Assembly: GCF_035084215.1 (NCBI RefSeq)
Contig: NC_090361.1
Coordinates: forward strand, 11,036,001 to 11,100,000
DNA length: 64,000 bases
Reading direction: 5' to 3'
Origin: Heptranchias perlo
Taxonomy: Eukaryota
The notes beneath the pieces are model-generated. The model did not search any database. It was given only the letters and a program-made list of their open reading frames with translations, and was not told where the DNA came from. This document shows positions 1 through 42,234 of the stretch, one piece after another; the first letter of the stretch is position 1; each line of letters opens with the position of its first letter. A program made the position numbers and the translations under genes.

Positions 1-343
1 TGCACTGCAGTGATTCACCAAGGCTTCTTCGACAGCGCCTCCCAAACCCGCGACTTCTACCACCTAGATGGACAAGGGCAGCAGATGCACGGGAACACCA
101 CCATTTGCATGTTCCCCTCCGAGTCACACACGATCCTGATTTGGAAATATATCACCGTTCCTTCATCGTGGCTGGGTCAAAATCCTGGAACTCCCTACCT
201 AACAGCACTGTGGGAGTACCTTCACCACGGACTACAGCGGTTCAAGAAGGTGGCTCACTATCACCTTCTCGAGGGCAATTAGGGATGGACAATAAATGCT
301 GGCCTTGCTAGCGATGCCCACATCCCATGAGTGAATTAAAAAA
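1..343 (+). mobile_element. 3' end of a non-LTR retrotransposon (LINE), truncated by the window edge
   Basis: Frames give SF..AGSKSWNSLPNSTVGVP and GLQRFKKVAHYHLLEGN*, typical LINE ORF2 C-terminus, followed by a short 3' UTR ending in an A-run; a degenerate reverse fragment occurs at ~6550-6610. Confidence 0.75.
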
Positions 344-1559
344 ATGCAGTTGGAGGTCATGGAGACAGAGAGATAAGGCTAAGGAGGGACATAAAGGAGA
401 GGACAAGAATCGTAACATCACCTGTCTGGGACACAAGCAACTAGTGGAGCTGGGCAAGGGAAAGGCAATAGGGATGCAAACCTTCGTGCAGGCGAGATGT
501 CTAGCTTCAAGGTGATGAAGGCATAGATTAGGATTCCAGTGGCAAAGACGGAGACATTGCATTTACTCTCAGCCATCAGGGAAAGTTACTTTTCCTATAG
601 TTTTAAATCATATATAAAGATGTACACAGATCTTAAATACTTTGTGTTCTTACCAAGTAAAATGATCATCTTCTATGTACCGGTAACAAATGCTGTTTCA
701 TATTTTTTTCCCCTCTATCCCTCCCCATCAGATTTCTTCTTGCCTTACCTCTACTGAAGGCAACAACATATGCTGGATACAGCTCAAGGAGAAGCCCCAA
801 CTGAATCTGAATATCAAGTACCAGTAGACCATTCAACAATGGTCCATGGAGAGCATGAAATCAATGCTCACTCTGTTGAGCCAGAATCCATATTCATATT
901 AAAAAAGGAATCCTAGCCAGTCTTCCCTATTCTAATCAGGAACACAAACCAACTGGAGCACAACTGTGGTCATGGACCCTCCTAGCCAAGATCTTCAAAG
1001 ACAGATCAGGGATTTGTCCTCGATGTTTTCTCAAACAGTATAATTTAACCCCCTGACCGAGAGGAGCTCGCCAATATAAAATAATACCCCTTTAAAAAAC
1101 AAAGGCAACACTTAAGCATCAAGCAGCCATCTTTGCCATATTTCTAAAGCCTGCAGCATTGAAACTCAATGTATCCTAATACCCTCGGTTGCTAAATCTT
1201 GTGGAAGAGCAAGACTGCATTGGGAGCCAAGGTAATGTAAAAAATAGCCCTACAAACGTGACAGCAGCCTACTACAACATCAAGATTTTATTTTTAGAAT
1301 ATATAATTCGTGCACATCTTTCCCGGAGCACCTGCAACCTTCAGTGCTACAGGCTATCTACCCAGTTTAGCAAAATGTTCTTACAATCTAAAAGAATACC
1401 TAGGTTAGATAAAATGCACATGTAAAGGCAAACGTGTTGAGGAGGGAGTACGATTAGAATAGTTGATCAGGAAAGACAAATGTCAACTGCCTATGTGAAT
1501 TTCCAGTGCATGTTTCAGAAAGTCACGCCACTAGATTTTTGTCCCAGTTTTATCCCCAA

Positions 1560-2620
1560 TATGCACGGCTTGGACGCGGGCGCGCGCATGAGTCACTTTT
1601 TGACCAGAGCGCGCCCGCGCACACGGCGCGGGGCGCGCGCGCTACTGGAACAATCCACGCTGATTAGGTGCCGCCATTTTGTAGCGTCTTGAGAAATTTT
1701 AAAATCCTCCAGCCTAGGCCTCGAAACATTCATCGAGCATCGGGAAACGAACTTTCTTTTCAAAAAAAAACAAGACACACATCGCCAAAATAAATTATAG
1801 GCGAATAAAAGAAATGATTTAGAATCGAAATACTTAAACCGCCCATGCGAACACTGATCGTGAACGATTTACTTCAAGATCGAATAACTGTTCCTACCTA
1901 TTAAAAAAAATGTAGGAGCTAAATATTTCGATACACGACCTTTTTAAAAAGAAAACGGAATAAAAGCCAAGTCGTTTTAAAAAAAAATACGACATAACCC
2001 CAAAAGCGTTGAAGCAACCTAACGTAGTAGTATTGATTGACACCCCATTCAACCAATCGTGCAGGAGCATTCACGACACGAGCGGGCCTCCAGCCAATCA
2101 GGGAATTCGTGGGTTGGACAACTAATACCAACACGTTAGGTTGGCTTCACATTAGCATGACGCGCCTGAGGCGGAAATTAAAATCATTTTTGTTTTCCTA
2201 CACGCACAAAAATAACTCTTTCCCCCTTAAAAGCGGAACTTATTAAAGACGTCTCTGTAAACAGAATGAGAACCGTTTTAAAAAGTTAGAGAAAACCGTT
2301 TTAACGCTTACCCGAGTACCAAGAATCCATTTTGATTTCGTTGAATTCAAAAAAGCCCTTGCCCCGCTCCTGCAGAATTTTCTAGCTCCGGAAGAACCGC
2401 CCACCGCCGCTGATTGGTGTGTTCTGTGAGCCGACTCAGGGCAGCAACCGATCTCTGATTGGTAGCACGAAACCGTCAATCAGATTACGTCTTGCTGTTA
2501 ATTTGCATAATAAGATGCGAGCTGAAAGTTGCTACGTTCGTTCGCTTAAAAGTGCAACTACCCTTCCACGAACGATGGGCACTGCGGGGACCGGAGTGCA
2601 TCCTCCATCGGGGGAATTAG
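1560..2620 (-). promoter_or_regulatory. CpG island / promoter and intron-1 regulatory region of a minus-strand gene (CCAAT, GC box, ETS, NF-Y+PBX/PREP composite, YY1)
   Basis: High CpG density; minus strand reads CCAATC-GGGCGG-TTCCGG upstream of the ATG at 2330; TGATTGACA-N8-AACCAATC at 2034-2058; YY1 GCCGCCATTTTG at 1670-1681. Confidence 0.8.
2312..2330 (-). CDS. Putative first coding exon (MDSWYS+G) of a third AKAP95-family paralog, divergent from gene A; remaining exons beyond the left edge
   Basis: Minus strand caaaATG GAT TCT TGG TAC TCG G|GTAAGC: same 19-nt length, phase-1 donor and MDxxYx pattern as exon 1 of genes A and B. Confidence 0.65.
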
Positions 2621-3230
2621 ATTATTTTTTGACCTCGTTTATTTGTTTTTTTCTTTGGGTCTGATTTGTGGGTTTTAAAAAATTATTTTTAAAAATTCAA
2701 GTTACTACTTAACCCCCCCCCCTTTCAAAAAAAGGGGACCTGAATTAAAAGAGTAGTCGACGTCAGGAATAATATTATGATTTAATTTGATAAGTTTTCT
2801 TTATCTTTTTGGGTGATTATTGTTTGTGGTCCTCTAAAACGGGTGCACTTTAGTTGATTTGGGTTATTATTATGGGTTGCACATAAAAGAGGAGAAATCG
2901 GTTTCCATAGCAACTTATGTTCAGGTATCTGGGGGGAAAAGTGCAGCTACTGTTGTTAGTTTGTTGTTCATGGAGCAGATCTGTATGGTCCATGGTTTAT
3001 TAGATGTATTTATTAATTGTAACTTTGCATATGTGCAATGGCTACAAAGATTTCCGTGATTGGTGGGCACCGCAAGGACTGGAGTGCATCCCCGATCAGG
3101 AGAATGAAATTATTATTTGACCTTGTTTTATTTATTTTGATTCTAAATGTGTTGTTTTTAAATATATGAAGTTACACCCTTACCGCCCCCCCCCCCACAC
3201 ACACTTATAAAAGGGGGGCCTGAACCAAAA
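2576..3230. repeat. Local imperfect direct duplication of ~170 bp (2576-2750 and 3064-3230)
   Basis: Both copies read tgggcac.gc..ggac.ggagtgcatcc..atc.gg.gaat..attatt.tttgacct.gttt followed by polyC and gggg.cctgaa. Confidence 0.75.
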
Positions 3231-5219: not shown

Positions 5220-6180
5220 GGAGAGGGAGAGGGAGAGGGAGGGGGCGGGAGCGCGTGTGTGTTGGCGCGGACACGTGACGAGTGCGCGCCCCACGTGACC
5301 CACGCAATCGCGCGGGCCCCACGTGACCCATCCGCCCAAGCATTTGTGACGTCACCAAGGCCCGAGCGTTTCTTTCTGAAGCCGGATCACAATGGACGGT
5401 CGCTACGGAGGTTAGTAGAATCGGGTCTTTCTCGGCGTTCTGTGCATTCATAAAGCTCGTGAATCTTATTTTACTATTTTTTTTGCTAATGGTTAAAAGA
5501 TCATTTCTTTTAATGGCGCTCTCGACGTTTGCTTTCTAATAATTTGGGGATTGGAGACTACCTTGCTGCTGTAGCACGTCCCTCCTCTGCTTGGTTGATT
5601 GGTTGAGCTGCTGTCGTTGCTCCATGGGATTGGTTAAGGGCGCTGTCAATCATCGCCAGTCAAGTTTGATTGCTCCGGCAGAGGGAGGTCCGACATTGCT
5701 TTTTATTCCAGTACCGTACTTGCATTCGTTTTAAAAAAAAATAAAAACGGGTGGGTGCAGCTGGGCCGGGTAAAAATAATCAAATCCCTAAAGTTCAAAA
5801 AAAATATGAATCCGGACAAATGCGCGCTATGTGGCGCGCGCCTCCCACGTGTGGTTTGCGATCTTAAATGGCGTTTTTTAAAAAAAATTAAACTGCGGCG
5901 TATTTCCCCCCCCCCCCCCCCTCGGGCAGTGGGATCGCGCCCCGGCCCTGGTTTGGTTTTTGTTTTCAATTTTATTAACGCTGCCTGTTTGTTTGTGGCG
6001 GGAGGATGGCGGCTGGTTTGAGTCTGTTTCTCTTTCTTTCCCCCCCCCCCCCCGGTCTGCTCGCTCTCAAACGCCACAAAATGGCGGCGGCCGCCTCCTC
6101 CTCCCCCCCCCCCCCCCCCACCAGAGCGCGCGCTCGCACTCTCTCTCGCGCGCGCACACAATCTTTGGATTCCTTAACTG
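5220..6180 (+). promoter_or_regulatory. CpG-island promoter and intron-1 regulatory region of gene A
   Basis: GC box; CACGTGAC E-boxes at 5272, 5292, 5320; CRE TGACGTCA 5347-5354; GATTGGTT-N8-TGTCAATCA 5628-5652; YY1 CAAAATGGCGGC 6077-6088. Confidence 0.85.
5392..5410 (+). CDS. akap8l: Gene A exon 1 (MDGRYG+G)
   Basis: acaATG GAC GGT CGC TAC GGA G|gttagt; resembles mammalian AKAP8 start MDQGYG. Confidence 0.85.
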
Positions 6181-9100
6181 GCATGTTGCGCGCCTTTTGA
6201 AGAAGCCCTGCAGCAATCTGGGCCCATTTCCTTAAAATCATAGAATGATACAGCACAGAGGGAGGCCATCGTGCCTGTGCCGGCTTTTGGAACGAGCTAA
6301 TCAATTGCTCCCTCCCCCCCCATTGCCCTGCAATTTTTTCCCCCCTTCAAGTATTCTCTTTTTAAAATATATTATTGAATCTGCTCCCACTACCCTTTCA
6401 GGCAGTATTAAGCCCTCGAACTCTACTTCATTTTCTCTTTTTTTTGTTTTTTTGCTTACTCCTTTTCTGGCCCAGCCTGCAGCAACTTCGGTGTCTCAAG
6501 TGGCCGTTTTTATTTTATTTTTAAAAAGCTTATGATGCGGGTAATGCTGATTGCCCATCCCTAATTCCTTGAGAAAATGCTGGTGGGCCTTTGCTGCAGT
6601 CCCTGTGATGGTGTTTACATTGGTGGCACTTGTTGTCTGTGTTCCCCCATTCTTAATTGTGAGTATAATGATTATTCCCTGGCTTTTGGGCTGTGGAAGG
6701 GTATTGCTGGTGTTCCTGATCCTGTCCCTTGCTATGCAAGTGTCAGGAGAGAGAACCCTGTATAATTTTTTTTCTGACTGAGAGTTATAGAAGCTAATTG
6801 AAATGTCTCCTACTATTTTTCTAAGATCAACCAATTTGACAGAGGGGTCAAACTGCCTTGGCTCAATATCTCATTTTGAATTTTGGGGAGATCCCATTGC
6901 CACTTCAATTTGTTTAGTGAATTCTTTGCCCCACTCCTTTTACCCTGCCACCACGCCAGGTTTCTGAGGCCAAAAAGCTGACTGGCTTCAAGATCAATGT
7001 TGACCTGTAATTGACTGCCAAGAGATGTGGGAATGGTCAGTGTTGCTTCACCCCTTCACTATGTCTTTTCTTCCCTGTAGGAAAAAACAGCAGCTTGCAT
7101 TTATAATGTAAAATATACCTTTCCTTTTCATGTCTTTTAGGTGTTTGAGATTAGGACAGTGTTGGGCAGAAATGTGGTTGCAGCAATACAACCCACCAGT
7201 TTTTGGTGATACACTTGATGCTAGGCTGTTTGTATAGTTTTGTTGAGTTTTTATTTGAATTTAATACAGTTTCAATGAGATTTGTGTCTTTATTTATTGG
7301 TTTAGCTGGTATGATCTTTGAGGCAAGCACTTGTTTTGTGGTGTAACCAACTTGTGTTTTATATCCTGAATTACAAGAAACTGACATTTTGACAGCAAAA
7401 TTGTCCACTGCCAAACTGGTGAATACTTGACATTTTAAAATGTGTTCAAAACATTGTTTATGATGCTAAGATGTTTATGTAGTGTACTTGGGAAATGCCA
7501 CTTGTGTAGTGACTGTTCCAATGACAATCCATATTCTGTATTACCATAATTTTGTTTTCTCCCCTCCTGTACTGCACCAGGTTGTGTATTTGTCAGTTAA
7601 ACCAGCAGGATAGCTTTTATCATGTTATGAATCATGTAGACTTCAAGAGGATATAGACAGGCTGGGGGCATCGGCAGACACATGGCAGATGAATTTTAAC
7701 ACAGAAAAATGTGAAGTGATACATTTCAGTAGGAAGAATGAGGAGAGGCAATATAAACTAGAGGGCACAACTCTAAAAGGGGTACAGGAACTGAGATCTG
7801 GGGGTATATGTACACAAATCGTTTAAGGTGGCAGGGCAGGTTGAGAAAGCAGTTAAAAAAGCTTACTGGAATCTGGGCTTTATAAATAGAGGCAAAGAGT
7901 GCAAAAGTATGAAAGTCATGATGAATCTTTATAAAACACTGATTTGGCCACAACTGGAGTATTGTGTCCTGTTCTGAGCACCACACTTTAGGAAAGATGT
8001 GAAGCCCTTAGAGAGGGTGCAGAAGAGATTTACTGGAATGATTCCAGGGATAAGGGACTTTAGGTGGATAGACTGGAAAAGCTGGGGTTGTTCTCCTTGG
8101 AACAGAGATGGTTGCGAGGAGATTTGATAGAGGTATTCAAAATCATGAAGGGTCTAGATAGAGAGAATAGAGAAACTGTTCCCATTGGCGGAAGGGTCAA
8201 GATCCAGAAGACATAGATTTGAGGTGATTGGCAAAAGAATCAAAGGTGATGTGAGGAAAAACTTTTTTACACAGAGTGGTTAGGATCTGAATGCACTGCC
8301 CAAGGTGGGTGGTGGGGGCAGATTCAATCATGGCCTTCAAAAGGGAAGTGGATAAGTACTTGAAAGGAAAAAAATTGCAGGGCTACGGGGGGTTAGGATG
8401 GGGGAGTGGGACTAGCTGAATTGCTCTTGCATAGAGCCGGTGCGGACTATGGGCCAAATGGCCTCCTTCTATGTTGTAACCTTTCTGATTCTATGTGTAA
8501 CCCTATCCATGTGAATTCCTGAAGATATGTTCTTCAAAGTTTTCTTTCTGGTACCTGTAAAAACAAAACTACAGCTCTGTCCACTTATGGTCCCAACAGC
8601 TTGAGACGTGTTATGGTCCACCCAGCATTCAGTCATCTCAATCTGCACTTGGAATATATAACTTTCATTCCCATTTTTTGTGTTATTGTAACAAGCCAGG
8701 GTGAAAAGGGAAAACTGTTTACTGCACAAGGGTCTGTGACAATGTTGAGACCTTGGTGATATTAAATTGTCCCCTCCAAAAAATGTTTAATTGGATGTTG
8801 TAGTTTCTGTCGCTGACGTCTGCATTTTAGGTTCCTACTGGCTATTGTCCTGATACTTAAAAACAGTTGTAAACCCATGCAAAAGACCATTATCACTTAC
8901 ATGTTTATTTTGAGCAGTTCATCTCATTGGAATGGTAGCTGTAGTATGAGAAATGGAGATTAAAGTTTAATAGCTTCCCTCACCTCTGTGTCTCCTTTCC
9001 CTGAGACATTGAGTGATGCTGATGTATGGTTGCCTTATGGCACGTTGGCCAGGTGGGCGTTCTTTGCATGCAAACTTAGACATTAAATGTTAATGGGGTA

Positions 9101-12100
9101 TTCAAGAATAGAGCATCGCAGCCAAGCCTGTTGTGTTTTGCTATCATTCAACCACATACATTTGCACTTTCCAGCAAGGTGAACGGATAGCTTATCAATA
9201 AAGGGATTCTGACTTTTTTCTTTTTCTAATGTTGAGCATTGAATCTCCATTACTGCACTGATTCAAGTGAGCTGATTCATCAAAACTAGACCAGACTCTG
9301 TAGCATCCCAGTTCTTTAAGCCTTGTGCTATTTCTTACTCCAGAATAAGTCACTGGAAAGCTATTGTGAGTACTTGGGTAGTTTATGGCAGGAAGATTGA
9401 ATGATCTATGGCATTGTTGAAGAATGAGCTCTTATTTTTTCTGCTTCCTCATAAAGCAAATTTGTACGGATTTGAATTCTGAGGTAAACAGAACTGCTTA
9501 GATCATGGAAATTTGCTTTTTCTGTAGTTCATTAGAATAGTAATTATGCTCTGTAACGATGCTGAGTAGAGTGATAAATTGGGAGAGGTAGAACAATCTT
9601 GGCAGTTTATCCCCAGAAGCACTTGCTGAGAGTGGGACAGTAACTAATCATTAGATTAACAGATGATGTATGGCTAGTAAGCAGTCCCTAATTTTTTTGG
9701 AGAATATTGTGCTCAAGATGAACGATGTTAGTGCAGGGGGAATTATTTTGAGCACCCAATATTGGCATTAAGCACTCCCAGGTGTTGCTCCATTATCCAA
9801 CTGCTTGTTCAACATCAAGACCTGGATGAGCCGAGATTTGCTTCAGTTTAATGTCTGCAAAACCAGTGCCATTTTGGTTCTATCCAGCACGTGTGTGCGC
9901 TTGACTCCCATCATACTCTGGCTGTCGCCTTGGCTGATTCAATAGGTATGCAACCTCAGTACTGCGGTTGGATTCGTTCCACACATCCACTCCATTACTA
10001 AGATTGTGTTCTTCCACCTCGGTTGCCTTGTCCACCTCCACCCTTAATTCACCCTACCTCATGGCCACTGAAACAACAGTCCATTACCTTGTGGCTTGAC
10101 TTTTCCAACCAGCTTCCCATCCTCAACCCCTTCCGAGTTACAACCCAGAATACTGCAATGCTTGCTAAGTCTTGTTCTCCCATTACCCCTGTCCTCAACA
10201 TGCTTGACTGGATTCTGTCTGCTCCAGTGAGTTGACTTCAAAATTATCATTCCCTTTCAAATTCTGTCCTGGCAAATATTTATCCCTCAACCAACATTAC
10301 TAAAATAGATTATCTGGTCATTATCACCTTGCTATATGCAAATTGGCTGTTGTGTTTCCTACATTACAATGATGACTACACTTTGAAAGTGCTTCATTGG
10401 CTGTAATATGCTTTGGGATGTCCTGAAAGTGCTATATAAGTGCAAGTTTTTAAAAAAATCCATCTATGTTCTCACCCCATTTTACCATTGTGTTACACAC
10501 ACCCTCTGCTCCACTGTCGATCGTTCAGGCATACACTGGAATTCCCTTCCAAGTTCTCTCTGCTTTGCCACCGAACTGCCTTCTTTCAAAAAAAAAATTT
10601 TCTTCCAGTCCTGTCCACCCCACTCTGGCACCTTAACCCCTGTCTGTTTTTCTATTTTCCCTTTCCTGCTTGGTGTCCACTGTTTCGCCCTCCACTTTGT
10701 TACATCTGCCTGCATCTGAAGTACAGAAATGCTGTTGCAAGGTTATCTGCAGAGTGAAGCTCCCTCTCGTCTGTCTCAACAACATATCTCAGCCCAACTT
10801 CAGAAGAACACTGCTTACTGTACTGAAATTTTCCCAGTTCCTAGCTCTCCTTTGGCCTTTGAATAAGATTACCAATTTAGAGTGGTGTAAGCAGCAGTTT
10901 TGTGTTGTATGCCCACTACAAATTGGTTAAGATGCTAAATGTATATGCAGAGATCTTGCAGTTAACCTATAGAGAATTTCATTCCATCAGCCTTGGATGT
11001 GGGTTGACATCTGACCCAAAAGTGAAAGACCAGAGTTTAACATACTGTACCATCCAGTCGCCGTAGGCCCACAATCTTAAAAGTAGTACTCTACTGGTTA
11101 CGAATGTAATGAGCCAGTGATTCTATACTGGCTTGGTTGCAATTTTGTGAATTGGAATAGGTGCTAATATTTTGTGATTTTAATCACGTGTGCCTATTCC
11201 AGGATGATAGTCCATTAGAATAGTATCTATAGTTTCCAACATTGCAGATTGCAAGGACAAAGATAGAACAGGAGTAAAAGTTCTAAATTGGGGAAAGGCC
11301 AATTTTACTAGCTGAGAAGTGATCTAGCAAAAGTGGACTGGAAAAAGCTACTTGAAGGTAAATCAGCATCAGAGCAGTGGGAGGCATTCAAGGGGTTCAG
11401 AGTAAACATGTTCCTGCAAAGAAAAAGGGTGGGATCGCCAAATCTAGAGCCCCCCTGGATGACAAGGAACATACAGGGTAAGATGAGGCAAAAAAGGAAA
11501 GCTTATGTCAGACACAGCGCTCTATACTAGAGAAAGCCGAGAGGAGTATAGAAAGTGCAGGGGTGAAATTAAAAAAGGAAATTAGGAAAGCAAAGAGAGG
11601 GCATGAAAAAATACTGGCAATTAAAATTAAGGAAAACTCATACATAAAGAGCAAGAGGATAACTAAGGAAGGAGTAGGGCCTATTAGAGACGAAAAAGGT
11701 AACCTATGTGTGGAGGTGGAAAATGTGGGTATAGTTCTTAACTAATACTTTGCATCTGTTTTCACAGAAGAGGGGGACGATGCAGAGATTGTGGCTGAGG
11801 AGGAGTGGAAATATTGGATGGGACAAACATGAGTGAGGAAGTATTAAGGGGTTTAGCATCTTTAGTTAAATCACCAGGCCTGGATGAAATGTATCCCAGG
11901 CTGCTAAGAGAAGCAAGGGAGGAAATAGTGGAGGCTCTGACCATTGTTTTCCAATCCTCCCTGGCTACAGGCATGGTGCCAGAGGATTGGAGGACTGCTA
12001 AGGTTGTACCGTTGTTTAAAAAGGAAGAAAGAGATAGATCGAGTAATTATAGGCCAGCCATTCCAACCTCGTTGGGCAAATTATTGGAATCGATTCTGAG

Positions 12101-15100
12101 GGGCAGCGTTAATCGTCATTTAGAAAGGCACGGGTTAATCAAGGACAGTCAGCATGGGTTTGTTAAGGGATCGTCGTGAGTGACTGACTAACTTGATTAC
12201 CTTCTCAAAAAATTCAATGAGGAGGGTCGATGAGGTTAACATGTTTGATGTAGTGTACATGGATTTGAGCAAGGCTTTTGACAAGGTCCCACATGGCAGA
12301 CTGGTCAAAAAAGTAAAAGCCCATGGGATCAAAGGGAAAGTGGCTCGTTGGATCCAAAATTGGCTCAGTGGCAGGGTAATGGTCGACGGGTGTTTTTGCG
12401 TCTGGAAGGCTGTTTCTAGTGGGGTCCTGCAAGGCTCAATAGTAGGTCCCTTGCTTTTTGTGGTATATATTAATGATTTGGACTTGAATGTGGGGGGCTT
12501 GATCAAGAAGTTTGCAGATGATACAAAAATTGGCCGTGTGGTTGATAGTGAGGAGGAAAGCTATAGGCTGTAGGAAAATATCAATGGATTGGTCAAGTGG
12601 GCAAAAAAGTGGCAAATGGAATTCAATCCGGAGAAGTGTGAGGTAATGCATTTGGGGAGGGCAAACAAGGCAAGGGAGTACGCAATAAATGGGAGGATAC
12701 TGAGAGGTGCAGAGGAAGTGAGGGACCTTGGAGTGCATGTCCACAGATCCCTGAAGGTAGCAGGACAGGTAGATAAGGTGGTTAAAAAGGCATACAGGAT
12801 ACTTTTCTTTAGCTGAGGCATAGAATATAAGAGCAGGGAGGTTATGCTCGAACTGTATAAAACATTGGTTAGGCCAGAGCTTGAGTACTGTGTATAGTTC
12901 TGGTCACCACGTTGCAGGAAAAATGTGATTGCACTAGAGAGGTTACAGAGGAGATTTACAAGGATGTTGCCAGAGCTGGAGAATTGTAGCTATGAGGAAA
13001 GATTGGATAGGCTGGGGTTGTTTTCTTTGGAACAGAGGAGGCTGAGGGGTGATTTAATTGAGGTATATAAAATCATGACTGGACTAGATGGAGTGGATAG
13101 GAAGGACCTATTTCCCTTAGCAGAGGTGTCGGTGACCAGGGGGCATAGATTTAAAGTAATTGGTAGAAGGATTAGAGGGGAACTAAGCAGAATTTTTTTC
13201 ACCCAGAGGGTGGTGGGGGTCTGGAACTCACTGTGAGAAAGGGTGGTAGAGGTAGAAACTCTCAACTCATTTAAAAAGTACTTGGATGAGCACTTGAAGT
13301 GCAGTAACCTACAGGGCTACGGACCAAGTGCTGGAAAGTGGGATTAAGTTGGATAGCTTTTTTTCATTCGGCACGGACACGATGGGCCAAATGCCTCCTT
13401 CTGTGCTGTACCTTTCTATGATTTCACAGTCTAGATAGGATGGTCAGTAGAATTCATGAGACTACTGAGAAAAACTCGTGTGTATTTGCTGTTGCTTTTT
13501 ATCCCCTCCCTGGTCTGGGTGTGGTTGTCAACAGTTGTTTTGTACCATTGGTAAAGCCCAATCTTGACCAACTTTTTAAAAAAATTGCCCTTCAAATCCA
13601 AGGAGGTCAAAGCCGATTATAGTGTCCCAATACTGACTAGACCTGGTTCTGTTTCTGATTAATCCTGTTTGTTTTATCCATTATATTTTCAGCATAATGG
13701 TCATCTGTTTTCCTACGATGTTGACATGTATAGAATGCTGTATTTTAGGAGTTTTAAGTTTGTATGTTGGCACCAGAATACTATAATTTCAGTGTGGTAT
13801 CTGACTGCTAAGGCTTGCCATCTATGAAGTCTTACTTTTCTCCTAACTGGTAAGACTGAGATCGATAGATTTTTGGTATGTAAGGGTATCAAGGGATATG
13901 AATCAAAAGCAGGTAGATGGAGTTGAGGTACAGGTCAGCCATGATCTGGTTGAATGGCAGAACAGGCTCGGGGCTGAATGGCCTACTTCTGTTCCTATGT
14001 AAGCCCCTACGGTCTCATTTTTATACATTGTATGTTTTGTCTGCATGTAACAACAGTGGTTGCTTTTTGTTGTATGGAACTACATAGAAGTCTTCAAAAT
14101 TATGATGGGATTTAATAAGGTACATTTAGAGAAAATGTTATCCACTTGAAGGAGGCCAAAACTAGGGGTCATAAATATAAGATAGTCACTAGTAAATCAA
14201 ATAAGGAATTCAGGAGAAACGTCTTTACCCAGAGAGTGGCTAGAATCTGGAACTTGCTACCACATGGATTGGTTGAGGCGATTAGCATAGATGCAATAAA
14301 GAGGAAGCTAGATAAGTACATGAGTGTAAGGAATAGAAGGACGTGCACATAGGGTTAGATGAAGTAGGGTGGGAGGAGGCCCATGTGGAGCATAAACACT
14401 GGCATGGACAAGTTGGGCCGAACAGCCTATTTCTGTGCTGTACGTTCAATAACAAAGATAAACTAATACAACAGTCTCCATAATGTAGTTGCTTCAGTGA
14501 TTAGAGAATTGGGTGAGTGCTTTTCTAGGTTAGGATTATTTTAAGATGTGCATTGGGATTGATTTTAAAAATAACTTCTAGAAATGATGTCTTAATGCCC
14601 ATTGCCACAGAATATGTTTGCTGTCATGAGGTCCTGGGTTCCCTCTAGGAGTAGGAAATAAGGACTGGATTGGTGCTGTCCATGTACCACTTCTGTCTAA
14701 AAGGTGAGGAGATTTTGGTGCAGCAACTTCATGTGCCAAGTGGAACAACGTGCTTATAATTTGTGGGGTAATATTTATGTAATGGGTGCATCCCACTGTG
14801 ATGTGAAGCTTCATATCAACCACTCTGCACTTCTGTATCTAGTGATGTCTGGGTGGTTACCGTGTACAAGACCTAGAAGGCACAGCATATTTAGAACAAC
14901 TTGTCAAGTTACTTTTGTGGGTCATTTTCTCATTCAGACTGGTTACTTTGAGGTGATAGACACTTGATGTTAAGTACTGCAAATAAGTGCTATCCCACAA
15001 GTTCACACAAGAATTTTTGCAGAAATATTCAGCCACTGTGAAATTAAGATGCAGCAGGTTGTCAAAGTTGTTCAAATTGTACTTTGATGTACTTGTATTG

Positions 15101-18100
15101 CAAAGAAATATCTATACTCCATGTGTATTTTTTCCGGTATATTCTAAAGCCTTGCCATAGCCTTGTACTCAACTGTTCTAGCTATATATCCCAACATAGG
15201 AATAGCTTTATTAATTATTTTCACAATGTGAGAGAATTTATTAGAATCCCTTTCAAAATCTCGCTTATTTCGATTCCATTTAAGTCACTTTTTTACCCAA
15301 TGTGAAATGTTTCATTTGTTGGTATTAAATTTAATTTGGCCAATGACAACTGATACAAATGCCGCTGCAAAGTAACTGCATCCTTATTTCTTCCTATTTT
15401 GGGACAGCTTGCCTGTATTACCTGGATCATGAAGCCAATTGTGGACTTGTCACATTAATAAATTACCTATGGTGCGCACATCCTGTACTCACAGGAATGT
15501 GGTGTTGTGCTATTTTTATAACATCTGAATATTGGATTGAAGCTGATGAGGTTTAAATTTCCCATGTAGTCAAATGTTTACCTACCTTTCAGTCTACCTA
15601 GCTCCTGAGATATGTCCAGATGGTGTAACACTGCTTCTTTTTGCATTGCTTTGTTTTCCTCTCCCTTATACAAGCCTATGGTTCTGGCTTGATTCCTGCT
15701 CCAACCAATCCCCCACATACATCAGTGGAAAATATGATCTGTAGCCTGAATCTACTGCCCACTGTAGACCGAACGGCAGTTGCCTTCCGCCAGCATGTAG
15801 CCCTATCCAGATGCCACTCTGACATCCTACTCTTCCTAGCAGAAAATGTGGCCCTGTTCTGACATCTCTGCTGCCATCCATCACTTATGACCCCTTGGGG
15901 CATCCTGGGCTGGATCTAGCCCCTAACTACTACCCAATACCTGTCACTGAAAAAAGAAAGAGGGTGGGGGAGGGGAGAGTGAGAAAGGGCTGGAGGTGGG
16001 TGAGTGTGTTTAAATCTCAGGTCTCCTGTGATATTACTCATGGCTATTTTGTCATCCCAGTGATTACTTAAATGTTTCCCCTGTGTTGGATTTCATTACC
16101 TTTCACATTGCTGCAGCTCGTGTATGTATTCATAAAAACTAAATTTTGTCATACTAAGTTTTAAAAAAAAAAGTGAGTGCTTAGTTTGTTACGGTACTTA
16201 TATAACAAATATATAGCAGATATTAACCCATAATCAGTTCAAGTGCTTGTAAAGAATTCTGCTTGATCAAGGCTTCACTGCTTGCATGAAGATCGGGAAC
16301 TGAGGGAAGTTCTGATGGGAATGGAGGGAGGTGTGTGTGAATGTGGATATAGTTTTAAAAAATATCTTTACTGCTCTGCATTGCAATAAACAGAAACTTG
16401 CCTTTAAATAGCTCCTTTTAACATAGAAAAATGTCCCAAGGTACTTCACAGAAGTCGGGGGGGTGGGGGGAGAGAATGGTATGTTACATGAAGAATACAT
16501 TTAGTCAAATAGGTTACTCACGGAGCAGTACAACCAACTGTTCTATTTACCAATCTATATTATAATAGTTTATGAATGGATTCAATTTGACTTTTGAGAA
16601 TATTAACTTTCTGGTAGGATTTGCAAAATGGGATGGGGAGTCTGACTTCATCATGGCTAGGCCTGCATAAAACCACATCCATTACATGTTCTCCCCACCT
16701 GCTGAAGCCCACCTTGGCTTACAGATGAGTTTCTGGCTTGTGCCAGCAGAGTGAGTGAAATTTCCCTTAACCACAGAGCCTTCAACTGTCTCTGCTCCAT
16801 GCTCTGGAATGCTCTCCCAAACCTTTCTATCGTGCTACCTTTTGTCCTTCCTTCAAAAACTACTTTGATCCCTGGGTTGATTGCCACCTACTGCTTATCT
16901 CGAGTGTTCTAGATTTTTAAAAAAATCTAAATTGTTTCATGTGATATTTGTAGGCCCCAGTGGCACTTGGCAGATGGGCTGCTCTTTTTCTGGGGAGTAA
17001 TGCCCAGATCCATGTCAAGCTTCTGCCTCTGTTTAAACAAGGCTAAAAGCCCTCAATTGGTGGGCAAGAATGTGAAGAGTGAAGGTGGAGTCCTTCCAAA
17101 ATCTGCCTGGGAGTGGGGTGCAAACATGGTTGCTGCGAGTGTGATTCTGGAATTTGGTCTGTGAACCAAATGACTAGGCTACAATCAGCTGTGGCTCGGT
17201 TGGTAGCACTCTTGCCTCTGAATCAGAAGATTCAAGCCCCATTCTAGAGATTTGAGCACAAAATCCAGACTGACACTCCAGTGCAGGACTGAGGGAGCAC
17301 TGTATTGTTGGAGGTACAGTTTTTCAGGTGAGACGTTAAACCGAGGCCCCATCTGCCCCCTCAAGTGGAAGTAAAAGATCCCACGGCACAATTTCTAAGA
17401 GCTGGGGAGTTATCCCGGTGTCCTAGACAATATTTATCCCTCAACTAACATCACTAAAGCAGATTATCTGGTCATTATCACATTGCTGTTAGTGGGAGCT
17501 TGTACGCAAATTGGTTGCTGCATTTCCTACATTACAACAGTGACTACACTTTAAAAATACTTCATTAGCTGTAAAGTGCTATGGGGCGTCCTGAGGTTTC
17601 AAAGGCACTATATAAATGCAAGTCTTTCATTTGATGGTTTGCATCAGCTGACTAAAATGCAACATTCATGACTATCTGTGTATTTTCTCTTCAAATATAC
17701 CATTGCTTTTATACTTCTAACTTCCTGTCTAATTACAAGCTAGTTATAATATGAAAAATGTTATAGCAAAGGATGTTGAGCACAATGTATATCTCTAGGG
17801 CCCTTCTTATATCTCTTCCATATATTTTTCTTTCTTGCCTCATACCCTTGTTTTTCTTGGGTATATTCTTGCATGCTTAATATGTTTCTAAAAGGATTTC
17901 CATGTTACCTCATCCAGGGTATTTAGGGTTCCGAGCTTTTTGTCTTCATAAACCGCATAGGTATGTACCATGGAACATCCGATGGTGGAGGGGGCAGGAT
18001 GATGAAATACAGACATATAAAGTTTAAATACATGTTCCCATAATTTGCATACATCTCCAGTTGCTGATACTAACAGATCTTGGTGTTCTAATTTAGGATT

Positions 18101-21100
18101 TATCCACCAATGAGACAACAGCGCTAAGAACAGCCCTTCCCAAATCTCCAGGATTCAAACGGGAAAAACCAGTGAGCACGAAATATAAGTGCAAATAAGA
18201 CTGAGTTGCCTGGGCTTCGAGGGTTAGATTTACGGGTAACTTGGACACATTATAAATAATCCCAATTAATTTCTTAGAGTTCATCCTTCATTCTGATGAA
18301 GGATGAAATCCTGTGTGTTTCTCCTGGTATTAATTGTCATTCTACTTTAAACCTAATCATATTGTCACTAGTCCTCAAATTTTTGCCTGCTGACTTGTAT
18401 AATCCAGATTTCCTGGTAGTCCATGAAGTAATCCTGTACTATATTTTGATTCTTTGACGGGCATACATCTAGGCATTCCTGATTTATATTGGATGAAGTC
18501 ACCTGTTATTGCTACAAAGTTTGCATGGACAAGAATGATCATGTAACTTGCTATCATTTGTCTGCAAGTCTATAGCAAAACCCTATTGTTAACCCAGTCC
18601 TCTGTTTTGTGTATATTTAGGAGATTGTCCCTACATCCATATTGCTCTTATGTGAAGGTATTAAATAATAGTCATTCATCCTTTACCTCTAATAGAAGTT
18701 AGACTAGAAACATTGAAACGTCTGGGTAATACGCTTTATCTCTCCCCTTCCTATCTCCTGTAACCTCCAGCCCTACAACCCTCTGAGATCACTATGCTCT
18801 AATTCTGGCCTTTTGCGCATCCCTGATTTTAATTGCTCCACTGTTGGCGGCTGTGCCTTCAGCTGCCAAGGCCCTAAGCTGTGGAATTACCTCCTTAAAC
18901 CTCTCCACCCCTTTCTCCCCCTTAAAACCTATCTCTTTGATCAAGCTTTTGGCCACCTGTCCTAATATCCCTTTATGTGGCTTAGATTTTGTTTGGTAAC
19001 ACTTCTGTGAAGTGCCTTGTAACCTTTTACTACACTAAAGGTGTTGTATAAATGCAACTTGTTGTTAAATCAAGTCAATGTGATCTAGGTACCGATTATA
19101 ACATAAATCACAAAGCAGGAACTCCTCAGTAGATCAAAAGTGTGTCTGTCTTGACTGCTTACGCTAGCCACAGCAAGTTAATATCAGAAGGTCCCCAAGG
19201 AGTTCCAGTGTTTATCTTTTTATGTGTCTAATTATGTCCTCCTAATGTAGTGCCATTATGTAAACGTGTTCTAACTATGTCTGGTTATTCTCCCTTCAAC
19301 GAGTGCAGTAAGATCTGTTTACTCACTAGTGAGAAACTGTTATGTCCTTCCTCCCAGTACATTCATAACACAGGCCTACTTGTATCAGATTACCTCCCTA
19401 CAGTCATTTGACTAATTTACTATATGCCTACTATATTTCTTAATCTCTTATGGATTGTTAATGAGGTAATGTCGCCACTGCTCCAGGCCTGATCCTGTAT
19501 AGCCATTATATAGAATAAATGGATATGTATTTTAAAAGTTTATTATGGCTATTCTACCTGGCATACCCATACTTACACTCTGCCTGCTTGTTAGCTCAAG
19601 CCAAATTTTTGTTTTCTACCACCTTTCTTCCCGAAATAGAAATTCAGCTTCCTTAATTTGCACACTTTTTCCTGAACTTTTAAAGCTCCCCACCTGTGAT
19701 CTCTTTCCTAAACACCTTAAGCACTTTCATGCTGAATTGACTCCTATCTTCTGAGGTGAGTCATGTTTCTGTAATCTGTATATTAAAATTTCCTGCTGTT
19801 ACAGTATGCCTCCAACGCCTTATTCTGACTGGTTCTAACAATCAAGTATAGATACTTAATTGTTTTTTTAACTCTGATCTCTTCCCCCCTGACCAACCTT
19901 GAAACTCTGTTTGCCTATGTGGTTAAAATCTTAACCCCCTTCTTTCTCTCTGTGCACTTTCCACCGCAACCCACTCGGTACCAAGATTTAAAATGTGTCA
20001 GGGACTGATGGTTGATCTGATCCTGGAGCATCCTGATGGTTGACCTGATCCTGGAGCATCCTGATGGTTTAGTGGATGAGTGTACCACTGATGTGGTGCA
20101 AAGCTGTACAGATCAAGAAGGCCAACGGTTAGATTCTTTGCCTATACCAAGTTAGCTGATCACTGCCAGGTGGCTGTAGATGCTCTAAAGTTGGCACCAG
20201 AATGTCTGATTGAGGGAAGGGGGGAAGGTCAAGTAGGGTTTCTGTTATCATGTGGTGTATGTACATCGGTAAGATGAAGATTAGATTGAACTTGCCTGTG
20301 TTATCCACCCCTTCAGCTTCAAATAGCCTGCCAACATTCACTGGTTAGGCTTACATGAACAATGGTCACTCGAGCAAGTTACCAATAGGGGTCAGTCCCT
20401 TCAGGAGAGGTGGTGGGGAGAAAATTGGCAGGAATAAGTCCTGGGTCACGTGCAAGAAGCGATGTTCTTGTTGAGAAGCACTTAGGCACAACATGATGAC
20501 TTAAGAATTATGTTGAAGTCCATCATCACGTCACTGTTGGATTATAACAAAAATGATGCTGGACTCTTCTGTTTTTTTTTTCTCTTTCCCCCCCCCCCCC
20601 CCACAAAAAACAAAAGTTTGTAAAATCTGTTGGTGTAACTGAAATGCCAGGTATGCTGATCATTGATGTCTGATTCTGTTTCTCTTAGAGTACGGAGAGG
20701 ATGATTCTTGGAACACAGGAGGAGACGATGGTCAAGGTGATTTCCTTTTGATTTTATCACTAAAAATACAAGATGTTCAGATGGAAAACCTCCTGTGGGT
20801 TTAATGGGGTCAGGAATTGCTGTTTTAAAAATATTTAGGCATGTTTTTATTGCTTACAATAGATATTAATGCCACTTTATTCAGACAGTTAGTGTTGTAA
20901 GTAAAAGATATGGTTTAGGAATAAAAGGTTTTACACAAAATTCTTCAACTAGTTGGTTTGGAATCAGATAATCTTGGTGCTCAAATTTGTAATGTTGAGC
21001 ATAATTAGGATAGCTGCTTATAATGAGAGGTATTAATGAACAAACCAGTTTGAATTTATATAAAAGAATGTGGTGATTTTCCAAGTAGTTTCTTTGGAAT

Positions 21101-24100
21101 GCAGCACTACTTCAGGGGAGTCCTGAACTTCCCTTGAAAAGTAACTAATAAAACATGATCTCGGGAAGAATATATTTACCTTGGAAGGGATATTATGCCG
21201 ATTTACCAGAATGATATTGGGATTTAAAGGGTTAAATTGAGAACTTACATAAAATTGGCTTCTGTTCCTTTGAGGGGTGATCTAATTGAGGTATTTAAAA
21301 TGATAGTGACTTGATAGAGAGAGACTATTTCTTCTGATGGTGGGGGGGGGGGGGGGGAGAAATAGAACAAGGGGGTGCAATCTTAAAATTAGAGCTAGGC
21401 CATTTTGGAGTGAAATTAGGATACACTTTTTCAAACAAAGGTTAGTGGAAATCTGGAAAACTCTTACCCTCACCCCCAAAAAAGCTGTTGAGGCTAGGTC
21501 AGTTGGAAATTTCTAAACTATTGATAGGTTTTTGTTAAGCAAGGGTATTAAGGGATGTAGAACCAAGGTGGGTAAATGGAGTTAAGATACAGATCAGCCA
21601 TGATCTGATTGAATGAATCTTGGAACAGGCTTGATGGGCTGAATGGCCTCCTCCTGTTCCTATGACTTTATTTTTTCTATGTGAATATCTGATCTTGTGT
21701 ATTTTGTTCCTGTTAGGGTATGATGGCTATGATTACAATTACAACCAAGATAATTCAGGAAATTATTCAGGAAATTATGGCTATAACTCTGGCAATAAAG
21801 CTTGGGATGCTCCTAAAAACCCTAACACAGATTCCATCATCGCTAAGATCAACCAACGCCTGGACATGCTCTCCCAGCTAGAGTGTGATAAGACACCAGG
21901 CCCCTCTTCTCGCTCTTCAGGCCAATACAACAGGTATCTTCTGGAAAGTCACTAGATGGTAAAATACTGTACACATAAAGTGAAGAAATTGGCATTTGGG
22001 ACTGATGTGGCACTTCAAATTTAAATAGGCTGGCACACATTTCTTCTTCCTCTCCTCCTCCTTCCCCCCCCCCCCCCCCCCCCCCCCAAAAAAAAGAAAA
22101 TCTCATGCTTACCTGCACTGTGGTGAGAAAACCTTGGTTTATTAATTATTTTATACCCTTTTTATATTGCCATATTTAACTTTGATTTAACCCAAATTAT
22201 TAAGCATGGATTTAAAATAAAGCTTTAACCAACAGTGATTCATTGTTTAAACCAAAGTTAATCTGGATGATGTATCTCACTCTATTCGGTGCCATACATT
22301 CGATCGTCAAGGTGCAAAACGTAGTCTTAGTTTGAGACCACCAGGATTGAAGTCCTAACTGACCCTAGGTTTGGTTAATTGTATTAGCAATGTGACTGAG
22401 TCTTCAACGAGGATCATCATCTGCAGTGAAACGTATGCTTGGTAACGTGGAGAGTATAGAAGGTAGTAATTTATTTTTACATCTCCATTCTTTACAGCAA
22501 TTAGGTTAAATTTTTGAGGATGGCATCCAGCAAATGAACAATGGGGGGCAGAACATTGGACAGTTGACACGAGCCATTTGTTGGACATTTGTCTTTAAAG
22601 TTTGCTGTTGGCCAAATGTTTTTTTTCCATTCCTATGAAGGAAAGTTGGATATTGAGCAATTGCAGGCTGATCTCCCCATTACTTACACGTGTATGTCTT
22701 TTTGGTTGCAGTAAACCACCTTTTGCTGCTGTATTCAGTAATTTAGACATTGTTTACAGATGACAAAATAAAACCTGAGAGACCATGATTACCTGAAATA
22801 TCCTGTTTAGTTTTTAGTCTGCTGTCACTGATTGGCAGGCTTGTGCCATCGTCCTTTCCAGCTACTGATTGGATTCCTTGCTTGCTCTGCAACTCTTTCA
22901 GGTTTACACCTTATGAGTCCTATGACTCCAGGTCTTCAATGAATGACCATGATCCGTACAGATCTGGCTACGGCTATGGTTACGGTGATTCTGGACCTAA
23001 TTATAACGATTCTTATGGAGGTCACTATGACCACTACGACAACTCCTACGGGACCCGCAGAGATCAGTACCACAACAGAGCATATGGTAGCCAACGGGGT
23101 CAGAATTGGTCTAGAGACTGGGCTCCAAATAAGAGAGCAAACTGGAATGACCCCTACATGCAGCCTGCAGGTTCCAGGCGGATGTCTGCACACTGGAATG
23201 AGCTGTCAATGGGAAGCAGAGGCTTCAATGCTGCCTCCTCCACCAGAAACCTCCCTTCGCTCTTCTCCCCAAACATTATCCCCATGGACCTGTTCCGAGT
23301 TCAGGGTGCGGGAAGAGCGTTTGGTGGCAGACAGCGAAGGAGAGACAAGAATCGAAACAGAGGCGTAAGTACCTTTTTTTTAAAATGCATTTTTATTTTT
23401 ATCAGTAGCCAATGGGTATGATCAACAAAAGATCAAAAAAGCCAAGTTGCAGAATATTTTTTGCAGTGGAATGCCCATCACCCTTTTTTAATATCCAAAA
23501 ATCAGGTGTTCATTCTGCTAACTTGCTGGAGTGTAAATGTAATTTTCAAATCTTTAACCAGGTGTGGAAGAAGAATTTGTAGCCCTATTGGTTGAGGTTC
23601 CAGGTAAACGTTTAGGTTTTCTGACACTTTACAGTGGTTTTTAAGGTATTGCAGTGCTGTAGGATTGGTTTCAAAGTAAGTTTGAAAGTCTTTTCACTTT
23701 TTTTAAACCACGACCCCCCCCCCACAAACTAGTGCCTGTTGTCGATGAGTGAGTCAAGACTGAGTGTTGGCAAGGCACAGCCATCACTGGGTATTGATTG
23801 AGGGCTTTCCATGCAGGGATTGCACTTAGTTAAGGGATGCTGAGGCTGGTTAATAGTATTTCGACTGCCATCTGAGCTGGAAGCCATTCTCACATACTGG
23901 GATACTTGGGGGCTTTCTTGGTCTGGATGGTTCAACGGTGTGTATTATATACTAAGCCATAGAAAGGGCCTTTTCAAGAGAGGGGAATGCAATGTACACA
24001 ATGAAAGGTTTTACCTTCGGGCAGTCCTTGGGTACACTCCACCATTTACCCGAATCTGCTTTAGAGTTACAGGTCAATGTGCTTCAAATCACGTGCTGTG

Positions 24101-27100
24101 ATACATGATATATGCAAGCATTTAAAACCAAGCTTTCGTCCTCTGGCTGTAATTACCTGGTACTCGAGGCTAAAATTTTGTATCTGCGAAGACTGCCTTT
24201 TATTTGTCAAACAAATGTTGGTGGAGTTTTTGAAACTTGAATCAAATGTCAGCTGTTTCTGCTTTGTATCAGAGGAAGAAGGGTATAGGTGGTCAAGGCA
24301 GGAAGAGGAAGCAGTCAACAAGTAGCACTGAAGACCCTGAAAACAAGCAAGCAAAAACAGACGATGGTGAAGATTCTGATGCTGGTACTGTACAGTGAAT
24401 TATTACTTAGTAAGACCTTGTGTCCTAAGTTTCCAACTGAGTTGAGTTTAATTTTGTACGGTGAAGAATTGAGAATTAATCCATGATGAACTGGAAATTA
24501 TTGGAACATAATGCTGTCAAATTTCATTGAGAAATTCAAGTTACTCAGCTTACGATGCCTTCATAGAGTAACATATGTATTCTCTGCATGGAATATATTA
24601 ATTGCTGAGGAATGGGTATTTCATTGAAGTTCAGCACAGTTCTCTCCGTCTTGATGGGCATGTGTGCGATCTAGTGAGCTGCTTGTGTGTCATTCTGCTG
24701 TGTATTGCATGGAAAATTGCCTTAGATTGCAGTTGCGAGGAAATGTGCAGATGTAGTCTACTCTGAAAGACCAGGTTTGAAATAAAGGCAGTGGTCCCTC
24801 ATATGAGGGTAAATGCAATATTTAGAATGGTATTGCGATATACAGATGATAAAGGTTTTGGGTTCAATCTGAGTAGGCTGAACTCAGCTGCCATGCCATT
24901 AGGAGTGCAACAGTTGGTTTTGGCATTCCTATGCCAGTGGGGGGAGAATTTCAGGAGGGTTTCCTCCTCCCTGATGATCCATTTACTCCTGCTGGAAAAT
25001 ATGGGGAATGGATGATGGCAAAGGGCAGAATTGGTGTCCACTGTGATGCAGTCTAATAGTTCATTGATGTTCATTGGTTAGGCTCATGCATGAAGTGCCA
25101 CTTGGGACTTGGCAAACCTTATTTTACCCAACATATGGAACTGTAGCATGGGGATGTATCCGAGAGTGGGGGAAGGACCGATGCGCTACACTGGTGGTGT
25201 AATATTGTTTCGAGTTTAGGACAGGCATGAGATGAGCATAGGCAAGTTTGAGTCCTGGTCTGGAGTGCTGAACAAATGTGGCTCACAAGGGATGCGATCA
25301 GACGACCTCTTTATACTGGTGCTGGCTAAAGGGGATCATTGGCCTAGGTCATGCTGTGCACTTGGGGGTCTTGTACATTGCAACTATGTGGAGAAATATA
25401 ATTTGCAGGAAAAGAGGTCCAAATGAAAATCGGGGGGAAGCGGAGGAGAAATGAATGATTCTGCTTCCAGTCCATCAATTGGAGTGACTGAAGAATTGTG
25501 AACTGTCTGTCCTGTGGGGAGTTTGTGAAATAAAGATAGCTGGGAAAAAATACAAATAAAGAATGCTAAGCTCACACCCAGTGAAAGCAAGATTGTGGTA
25601 AAATCACCATTGATTTAACAGGATACAATTGCCAATTATACAGCCATTACTATTATTGAAACCCTTCTATGTTGGTCAGACACGATGACCTCTATAACTA
25701 TACTCAGAAGCAATTGTTTTTGTTTCTTTTTTGTAGAAGACAAGGATGACGATGGGGTTGATTCAGTAAGTACTATTTTTTGTTGAAGACTATCTCCAAA
25801 AGTACCTGAATAGAGCCAGGACATATGTTGGAATATACAGTCAATGCCATTAATGGGAAAGTGTCATTTTCTAGTATGCTCTGCTTGAGCACAAAATTTA
25901 CCTAGTTTTTAAAAAAAAATTGAATATTTTCTTTTATAAAGCGTAGTAGGGGCCTGGAATTTTAGATTTAATGTGGCTTGCATCCTTTTCAGGGTGGTGA
26001 GGACAAGGATTCAAGTGAGAAGGGAGAGAAGAAACCAAAGCGTTGTAAGTTACTTCAGGGATTTCTCTGTAAACATAATACATAACTCCAGGTAATGCAA
26101 GAGAACTCAGACCTGTGGGTTTTTTGTGTGTAAATATTGATATGTTATACACTCTATTCATTCCTCTTCCGTAAGAGGACAGCCTGGACTAAAATAATCT
26201 GGGCTTTCCTTGTGGCTGAGTAAATTTAACGTGAGGGTCCCAAGTTTGATTCCTGGACTAGTTTGTTCTCGGTAGAGGCATCCCTAGATTAAGGAAGAGA
26301 AAACTGGCTGGGGTTCTTGCATAGAAGCAGATTTCAGCTAAGGACTGGGGAGAGGGGGCAGTGCTCAGCTGTGATGCTGAGGGGCTCTCTTGTAATTGCT
26401 TTTGTTACCATCCCCACATCATTACCTCAAGTTCCCCATGGATCTATCTTTGGCCCCTTCCAATTTCTCATCTACGTGCTGCCCCTTGGCGAATTAATCC
26501 AAAAACATGTCAGGTTCCACATGTATGCTGACGATGCCCAACTCGACCTCACCACCACCTATTTTCAACCCTCCATTGCTTCTTGTCCGACTGCTTGCCG
26601 CACTTCCAGTCCTGGATAAGCTGAAATTTCTTTCAGTTAAACATTGCGAAGACCGAAGTCATTGTCTTTGGCTCCTGCCACAAACTGTTCCCTAGCCAAC
26701 CGATTCGATCCCCCTCACTGGCTAAACAAGATTGTTTGCAACCTTAGTGTCCTACAGTACACTGGCTTGTGCCAATTTAACAACGTCTAAACATGTAATA
26801 CTTCACACTGAACATATTTAAATTTTGGTTTTGTATGTTTCAAAACCCTAACACCAGTAATGCAGTATGAAGAAAATATAATGCTTAAATTATGTTGCAT
26901 TTCTGGATCTGCAGTATGTACTAAAACAGTCTAATCACTACATTCCTCTTCCTACCTATAATGACTGTTAGCTAATCCTTACTTTTTTTGCTTTCTATTA
27001 GTTCCTACTATGCAAGAGAAGAAGAAGTCTGGCAAACCCAAGAAGAATAGGGACCGCCTCGCAGAGAGGTACTGATCAGTGATACTATTGATATTTTGAC

Positions 27101-42215: not shown

Positions 42216-42234
42216 ATGGATGGTCGTTATTCAG
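42216..42234 (+). CDS. akap8: Gene B exon 1 (MDGRYS+G)
   Basis: caaaATG GAT GGT CGT TAT TCA G|gtcagt. Confidence 0.85.

Follow-up and report, generated by a model that had tools for sequence, protein, structure and literature searches.

The left end of a 64,000-nt stretch of the Heptranchias perlo genome (the window) carries a minus-strand exon that resembles the first coding exons of two AKAP95-family genes, A and B, on the plus strand to its right. This raises the question of whether the exon opens a third gene of the family, lying head-to-head with gene A. We find that it does: gene C is an intact, spliced gene and a third copy in the AKAP8/AKAP8L family. Its first exon is ATGGATTCTTGGTACTCGG followed by gtaagc (minus strand, 2330-2312) and encodes MDSWYS. 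The sequence-only reading that first proposed the paralog had described 19-nt phase-1 first exons in all three genes, and these were confirmed at 2330-2312, 5392-5410 and 42216-42234.

2312..2330, minus strand: coding exon 1 of gene C, 19 nt, MDSWYS+G, donor at 2311
5392-5410, plus strand: exon 1 of gene A, 19 nt, phase 1
42216-42234, plus strand: exon 1 of gene B, 19 nt, phase 1

The ATGs of C and A are 3062 bp apart in divergent orientation. A loose scan of the window for ATGGAY-N13-GT returned six matches, three of which are the first exons of C, A and B; for this reason the exon pattern by itself is weak evidence for gene C, and its sequence context is strong evidence. When the exons of A and B were used as queries in tblastn and blastn searches, their gene C counterparts were found in order on the minus strand to the left of the window, among them a KINKRLD exon, where KINQRLD had been predicted, and the predicted CSVCKFR exon. 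Gene C has 13 coding exons (19, 45, 205, 481, 112, 32, 43, 67, 142, 106, 131, 96 and 441 nt) forming a 1920-nt open frame of 639 aa, and it extends ~28.6 kb left of the window. GT-AG ends are present throughout and the intron phases are the same as in A and B. Positions left of the window, which covers 11,036,001-11,100,000 of contig C40, are given as the C40 position minus 11,036,000.

1..2311, minus strand: intron 1 of gene C, window part (whole intron 4208 nt)
-1897..-1941, minus strand: exon 2, joints exon 1-exon 2 and exon 2-exon 3 in contigs
-7038..-7242, minus strand: exon 3, joint exon 2-exon 3 in contigs
-9805..-10285, minus strand: exon 4, from the gene model
-15162..-15273, minus strand: exon 5, from the gene model
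-16759..-16790, minus strand: exon 6, from the gene model
-17997..-18039, minus strand: exon 7, from the gene model
-19435..-19501, minus strand: exon 8, from the gene model
-19604..-19745, minus strand: exon 9, from the gene model
-19992..-20097, minus strand: exon 10, from the gene model
-24840..-24970, minus strand: exon 11, from the gene model
-26494..-26589, minus strand: exon 12, from the gene model
-28131..-28571, minus strand: exon 13 with the stop, from the gene model
-28771, minus strand: AATAAA

The two zinc fingers are encoded by exons 9-12. The model is identical to the RefSeq protein XP_067829236.1 (639 aa, 'A-kinase anchor protein 8-like'; exon-4 peptide match 100%), so the paralog is not hidden, as had been claimed, but already predicted in RefSeq. 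In the 3' UTR, A (33182-33265, plus strand) and C (-28632 to -28717, minus strand) share an 88-nt block at 78% identity.

The two genes on the plus strand have the same number of coding exons:

5392..33124, plus strand: gene A, 13 coding exons, 634-aa model, sister paralog of C
42216..62282, plus strand: gene B, 13 coding exons, 659-aa model, 99% to RefSeq XP_067829239.1

The C protein is identical to A at 396 of 613 positions (65%) and to B at 322 of 589, with a rough dN/dS of 0.25 between C and A. Of 19 candidates in a genome search with PF04988, four matched. Two of these lie in the window on its plus strand and a third ~25 kb to its left on the minus strand; the last, on contig C9, is ZNF326. 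No fourth copy of the AKAP8/AKAP8L type was found by the PF04988 search (4/19), by an exon-4 search (3/17) or by tblastn over 364 kb, which gave no extra exons; these copy numbers are lower bounds. The earlier claim of at least three copies including an inverted duplicate therefore stands, while its restriction to one lineage does not, since rays and a chimaera have C too. The inverted orientation of C was observed in this one genome. The gene order is WIZ(+), C(-), A(+), B(+), an LRRC8 gene(-) and BRD4(+), and ZNF326 on C9 has another BET-domain gene on its contig, an arrangement that we take to fit a block paralogous to this cluster.

Several other features of the region were noted. The LRRC8-family gene (Pfam PF12534) lies on the minus strand at window ~73,400-75,800, between gene B and BRD4, and a degenerate histone-like fragment (Pfam Histone), probably a pseudogene, lies on the minus strand at ~-103,000 within the WIZ region. 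A perfect 88-nt inverted repeat with a 4-nt spacer (63731-63910), with related copies near -23,700 and -40,100, is probably a MITE-like element. Copies of ~570 nt of a LINE-like fragment, 93-99% identical and 16.9 kb apart (34932-35498 and 51815-52382), are probably a recent insertion pair. At the start of gene A exon 3 (21717-21723, plus strand), 7 of 18 A-type proteins read DDGQG-F(T/A)PY and omit the KINQRLD segment, a junction absent from C-type (0/12) and B-type (0/16) proteins. The frame of this skip needs one extra base, which a donor 1 nt into exon 3 (G followed by GTATG) would supply; among A, B and C, a GT one nucleotide into exon 3 is present in A only. Splicing of a 1-nt exon or recursive splicing is a possible explanation of these sequences.

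C-type proteins were present in 11 of 20 chondrichthyan species (42 named chondrichthyan proteins retrieved), the chimaera included. The A, B and C types occur together in Heterodontus, Mustelus, Pristiophorus, Narcine, Mobula hypostoma and Callorhinchus; the protein database holds one representative per 90% cluster, and a type missing from a species is uninformative. Trees were built from 24 fetched or modelled proteins, 44 in one tree and 128 in a zinc-finger FastTree; the B model from Callorhinchus, which is partial, had both of its ends trimmed, and one gappy AKAP8 row was left out of the exon-4 partition. A and C form a sister clade with support 100/100, and all six topologies that separate A from C were rejected in AU tests under JTT and LG (p-AU at most 0.0003). 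Because the A, B and C clades each contain a Callorhinchus sequence and A+C is supported, both duplications are older than the divergence between chimaeras and the lineage of sharks and rays. Before that divergence, a local duplication of the gene A ancestor probably gave rise to gene C in inverted orientation. Outside the cartilaginous fishes, at least two divergent proteins of the AKAP95 family were found in lamprey, on contigs of equal length, which suggests a local duplication in the lamprey itself. The 17 representatives of a long-branched cluster are divergent AKAP8-related proteins, one of them named and belonging to the spadefoot toad Spea; they point to an expansion that evolves fast and may belong to frogs.

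The relation of these genes to AKAP8 and AKAP8L depends on deep nodes supported at 55/42 and 38/39. A+C, B, AKAP8 and AKAP8L can be placed in 15 rooted arrangements; 12 (JTT) or 13 (LG) of them were not rejected, and the rejected ones all pair A+C directly with AKAP8 (3/3 under JTT, 2/3 under LG). Exon 4 likewise rejects the quartet that pairs A+C with AKAP8, and the remainder of the alignment prefers it without significance. A clade of A+C and AKAP8L has support 77.6/60 on exon 4 only and is absent from the full alignment, where it is also not rejected. WIZ, A, B and BRD4 lie on one strand in positions that match WIZ-AKAP8L-AKAP8-BRD4, which we take to be the human order, and a fused camel model has AKAP8L upstream of AKAP8 on one strand. 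Based on these positions, the simplest reading is that A is in the AKAP8L position, B in the AKAP8 position and C an inverted duplicate of A, with A and C as co-orthologs of AKAP8L and B as AKAP8. The trees allow this reading without proving it, and it is the one towards which we lean.

A second history, in which a single ancestral gene expanded into A, B and C within the cartilaginous fishes and bony-vertebrate AKAP8 and AKAP8L come from an independent tandem duplication, would leave sharks with neither AKAP8 nor AKAP8L proper. On the full alignment without an outgroup, its quartet (A+C with B against AKAP8 with AKAP8L, p-AU 0.56/0.50) ties with the positional one (A+C with AKAP8L against B with AKAP8, 0.52/0.61). 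The zinc-finger trees differ, as FastTree places A, B and C together with support 87 and IQ-TREE gives the same group only 12/36. No named chondrichthyan appears in the best 120 of 235 matches to the zinc-finger region of coelacanth AKAP8, yet B shares exon-4 motifs with AKAP8 and is closer there to coelacanth AKAP8 (68%) than to AKAP8L (56%). Bichir and coelacanth each have both AKAP8 and AKAP8L, and the presence of both in bichir, on contigs of equal length, would squeeze the two duplications into short intervals, while the gene order fits simple positional orthology. We regard the independent expansion as possible but rather unlikely, and histories other than these two take up the rest of the probability.

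The sequence upstream of gene C exon 1 parallels that of gene B, as the sequence-only reading had stated: when the 150 nt upstream of the ATG were compared, 0 of 1000 shuffles reached the C-B score and 1 of 1000 the A-B score, whereas C and A do not match (614/1000).

2331..2482, minus strand: 5' leader and proximal promoter of gene C, resembling that of gene B
2417-2413 and 2462-2458, minus strand: CCAAT boxes of the gene C promoter
2482-2475, minus strand: TGATTGAC in the gene C promoter
5272-5354, plus strand: gene A promoter, three CACGTG boxes (5272, 5292, 5320) and TGACGTCA (5347)

B and C have CCAAT-type promoters, as against the CACGTG/TGACGTCA promoter of A, and this difference in motifs between A and C suggests divided regulation. 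The duplication would have carried promoter and exon 1 along, as their sequences indicate; the B-like CCAAT promoter may then have persisted in C, with A acquiring its three CACGTG boxes and TGACGTCA by rewiring, a divergence that would give the two copies different regulation. The divergent layout, with the ATGs 3062 bp apart, could instead mean that one bidirectional promoter drives C and A and that the two are co-expressed. We consider this improbable: besides the differing motifs, the CpG islands at 1251-2750 (o/e 1.1-1.7) and 5001-6250 (o/e 1.0-1.2) are separated by ~2 kb at o/e 0.3-0.5 with a dispersed repeat near 3560-3780. Because the islands are separate, C and A probably share no promoter. 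A ~200-bp diverged direct repeat also lies between the two promoters (2552-2750 and 3033-3230, plus strand).

The first introns are also related, and over their first 750 nt all three pairs align better than 300 of 300 shuffles. The composite element that had been described ~250 nt into intron 1 was found at +254 (C), +218 (A) and +247 (B). Its pattern, GATTGGYT-N8-TGTCAATCA, occurs three times in the 64 kb, once per intron 1, and 0 of 100 shuffles reach three, a post hoc control with a pattern derived from the same sequences. The YY1 block reported ~620 nt into intron 1 was likewise recovered, as CAAAATGGCG, which we take to be a YY1-type motif, at +631 (C), +667 (A) and +584 (B). This motif occurs four times in the window (chance mean 0.12), the fourth in B intron 1 on the other strand.

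2034..2058, minus strand: DECA-CCAAT type element in C intron 1 (TGATTGAC, 11 bp, CCAAT, read on the plus strand)
5628-5652: DECA-CCAAT type element in A intron 1
42481-42505: DECA-CCAAT type element in B intron 1
1672..1681, minus strand: YY1-type motif CAAAATGGCG in C intron 1
6077 and 42818: YY1-type motif CAAAATGGCG in A and B intron 1

In all three introns, TGATTGAC followed by 11 nt and CCAAT has the geometry GAnnGAC-11 bp-CCAAT, which 10.64898/2026.02.16.706105 gives as that of PBX:PREP/NF-Y/Sp2 sites. With this canonical geometry, the intron-1 composite is a candidate DECA-CCAAT (PBX:PREP/NF-Y/Sp2) element.

Splicing of gene C was examined on a 10-kb stretch spanning exons 1-3. The exon 1-2 joint was found in two of four runs and the exon 2-3 joint in three of four (one sample, one study), in contigs with a depth of 623-864 and CT..AC ends on the plus strand; the donor at 2311 is thus used, as the proposed check of RNA junctions had anticipated. 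Depth was zero over the unique intron-1 bins (8017-9686 of the mapped stretch) in all four runs, and the unique intron bins of the exon 1-3 stretch had no or almost no coverage. The run type, RNA, is the tool's guess, and the spliced joints with empty introns indicate that the runs are indeed RNA. One loose contig end matches the start of exon 4, the length of one contig implies an RNA reaching ~2386, and the last exon is complete in four runs of one sample; a further 20 runs, with a share of 0.08-0.16, carry no weight as evidence.

These joints bear on the alternative that the sequence-only reading had itself raised, namely that a duplicated exon 1 and promoter was captured by an unrelated transcript or is a decaying relic. 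That the C promoter resembles B and not its sister A is what such a history could produce, but the exons 2 and 3 joined to exon 1 are of the AKAP95 type, the 639-aa frame is intact across 13 exons, and C-type proteins from other sharks and rays match the exon-4 peptide at 92-98% identity. Capture or decay is contradicted by this evidence and is extremely improbable. That gene C is an assembly artefact (a haplotype or false duplication of gene A) is less credible still and is refuted by the 65% identity of the C and A proteins (396/613), the background identity of all intron 3' ends except that of intron 3, and the separate A, B and C proteins of six other species.

The exception at intron 3 is a conserved element, of which the genome has three copies (3/3 candidates). 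Over the final 110 nt of intron 3 the three paralogs share 76-81% identity, compared with 45-55% for the other 11 intron 3' ends; in ZNF326 the element is near background (53-57%). The element may have been retained for more than 400 million years.

22792..22901, plus strand: intron-3 element, gene A copy, AG at -40 and then an in-frame stop
50333..50442, plus strand: intron-3 element, gene B copy
about -9695..-9804, minus strand: intron-3 element, gene C copy, left of the window

In each of the three copies a pyrimidine tract is accompanied by CCAG exactly 40 nt before the normal acceptor, and CTACTGA comes next. The first base after this AG would be -9765 in C, 22862 in A and 50403 in B. If used, the -40 acceptor would read Ser-Tyr-stop. 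The letters CTACTGA presumably also fit the branch-point consensus for the normal acceptor, so the -40 AG need not be used, and the single contig reaching exon 4 uses the normal acceptor. The similarity continues into exon 4, where identical amino acids have identical codons in 94/114, 88/100 and 69/87 cases (0.79-0.88), compared with 133/216, 96/168 and 92/168 when exons 1-12 other than exon 4 are counted (Fisher p about 1e-4 or lower). Codon bias was rejected as the cause, with a shuffle null of 0.42-0.46 against the observed 0.79-0.88. Recent gene conversion was also not supported, since in shark, ray and chimaera alike the exon-4 proteins of A and B group by paralog; C was not recovered as one clade in the exon-4 tree. 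Ancient gene conversion is possible, and selection on the RNA appears the likeliest cause of the conservation. A conserved RNA fold at the element had no support, with a covariation term of -0.21 on three sequences. Reading the candidate -40 acceptor as part of an RNA element, we tentatively suggest, as an idea that is more doubtful than not, that AKAP95-family proteins may switch splicing to it, sending their own and each other's mRNAs to NMD and so buffering the dose of the three genes.

The gene C protein matches the full PF04988 profile at 162.4 bits (cut-off 26.8), and no solved structure matches it. Both fingers are complete (C-x2-C-x12-H-x5-H and C-x2-C-x13-H-x5-H), the first 259 aa contain 8.5% Y, 10.8% G, 10.8% S and 9.7% R, and the basic nuclear-localisation-type segment RKRKQS is kept and aligned across members. 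The PKA-RII-helix insertion that follows GENPF and the finger domain in mammalian AKAP8 is absent from the C, A and B types, in agreement with PMC12203939, in which PKA anchoring is limited to mammalian AKAP8. For human AKAP95, PMC5105168 reports that the zinc fingers bind proximal intronic pre-mRNA, that the N-terminus recruits hnRNPs and that the protein mostly promotes exon inclusion, with HA95 and ZNF326 likewise enhancing reporter splicing. By analogy with these mammalian members, the C fingers would bind intronic pre-mRNA, its Y/G-rich N-terminal half would recruit hnRNP-type factors, and the protein is likely a nuclear zinc-finger RNA-binding splicing scaffold like AKAP8L. The whole reading, of an intact, spliced gene that arose before the chimaeras as an inverted duplicate of the gene A ancestor and would encode a nuclear splicing scaffold without PKA anchoring, is one that we hold with high confidence.

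Among known family members, AKAP8L (HA95) has, like C, a Y/G-rich N-terminal half, a basic segment, two AKAP95-type C2H2 fingers, an acidic tail and no PKA helix. The zinc-finger region of C is 62% identical to that of coelacanth AKAP8L, and WIZ, presumably the neighbour of AKAP8L in mammals, is a neighbour here. AKAP8L is present as one copy in the bony vertebrates sampled, whereas Heptranchias probably has two (A and C), with C inverted. AKAP8 (AKAP95) has the domain order, Pfam family and N-terminal MD start of C but differs in its mammal-only PKA-anchoring helix; its finger region is 57% identical to that of C, and trees pairing A+C directly with it are mostly rejected. ZNF326, the DBIRD subunit found in this genome on C9, is the third family member and a distant outgroup, with 36% identity to C in the finger region. 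In RefSeq, XP_067829236.1 and the chondrichthyan models of the A, B and C types all carry the one name 'A-kinase anchor protein 8-like'. A literature search covering few of the subscription journals gave no paper on the intron-3 element and none describing a third AKAP8-like gene from cartilaginous fishes, and gene C has apparently not been discussed in the literature searched.

The vertebrate family is described as one of three, AKAP8, AKAP8L and ZNF326, in PMC12203939. Cartilaginous fishes have four members, not three, and automatic annotation conceals this by giving the paralogs a single name. In the shark copies, which evolve slowly, elements of the promoter, intron 1 and intron 3 have been preserved that offer clues to regulation of the family. 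Gene C in itself adds modestly to comparative genomics: it is an old tandem duplicate of the ordinary kind, and nothing about it signals a new biochemistry. Dosage at AKAP8/AKAP8L is linked to human head size in PMC4468215. If the poison-acceptor loop is true, it would be an undescribed cross-regulation in a dosage-linked family, and the conserved intron-3/exon-4 element is the part of the locus that could open a testable question.
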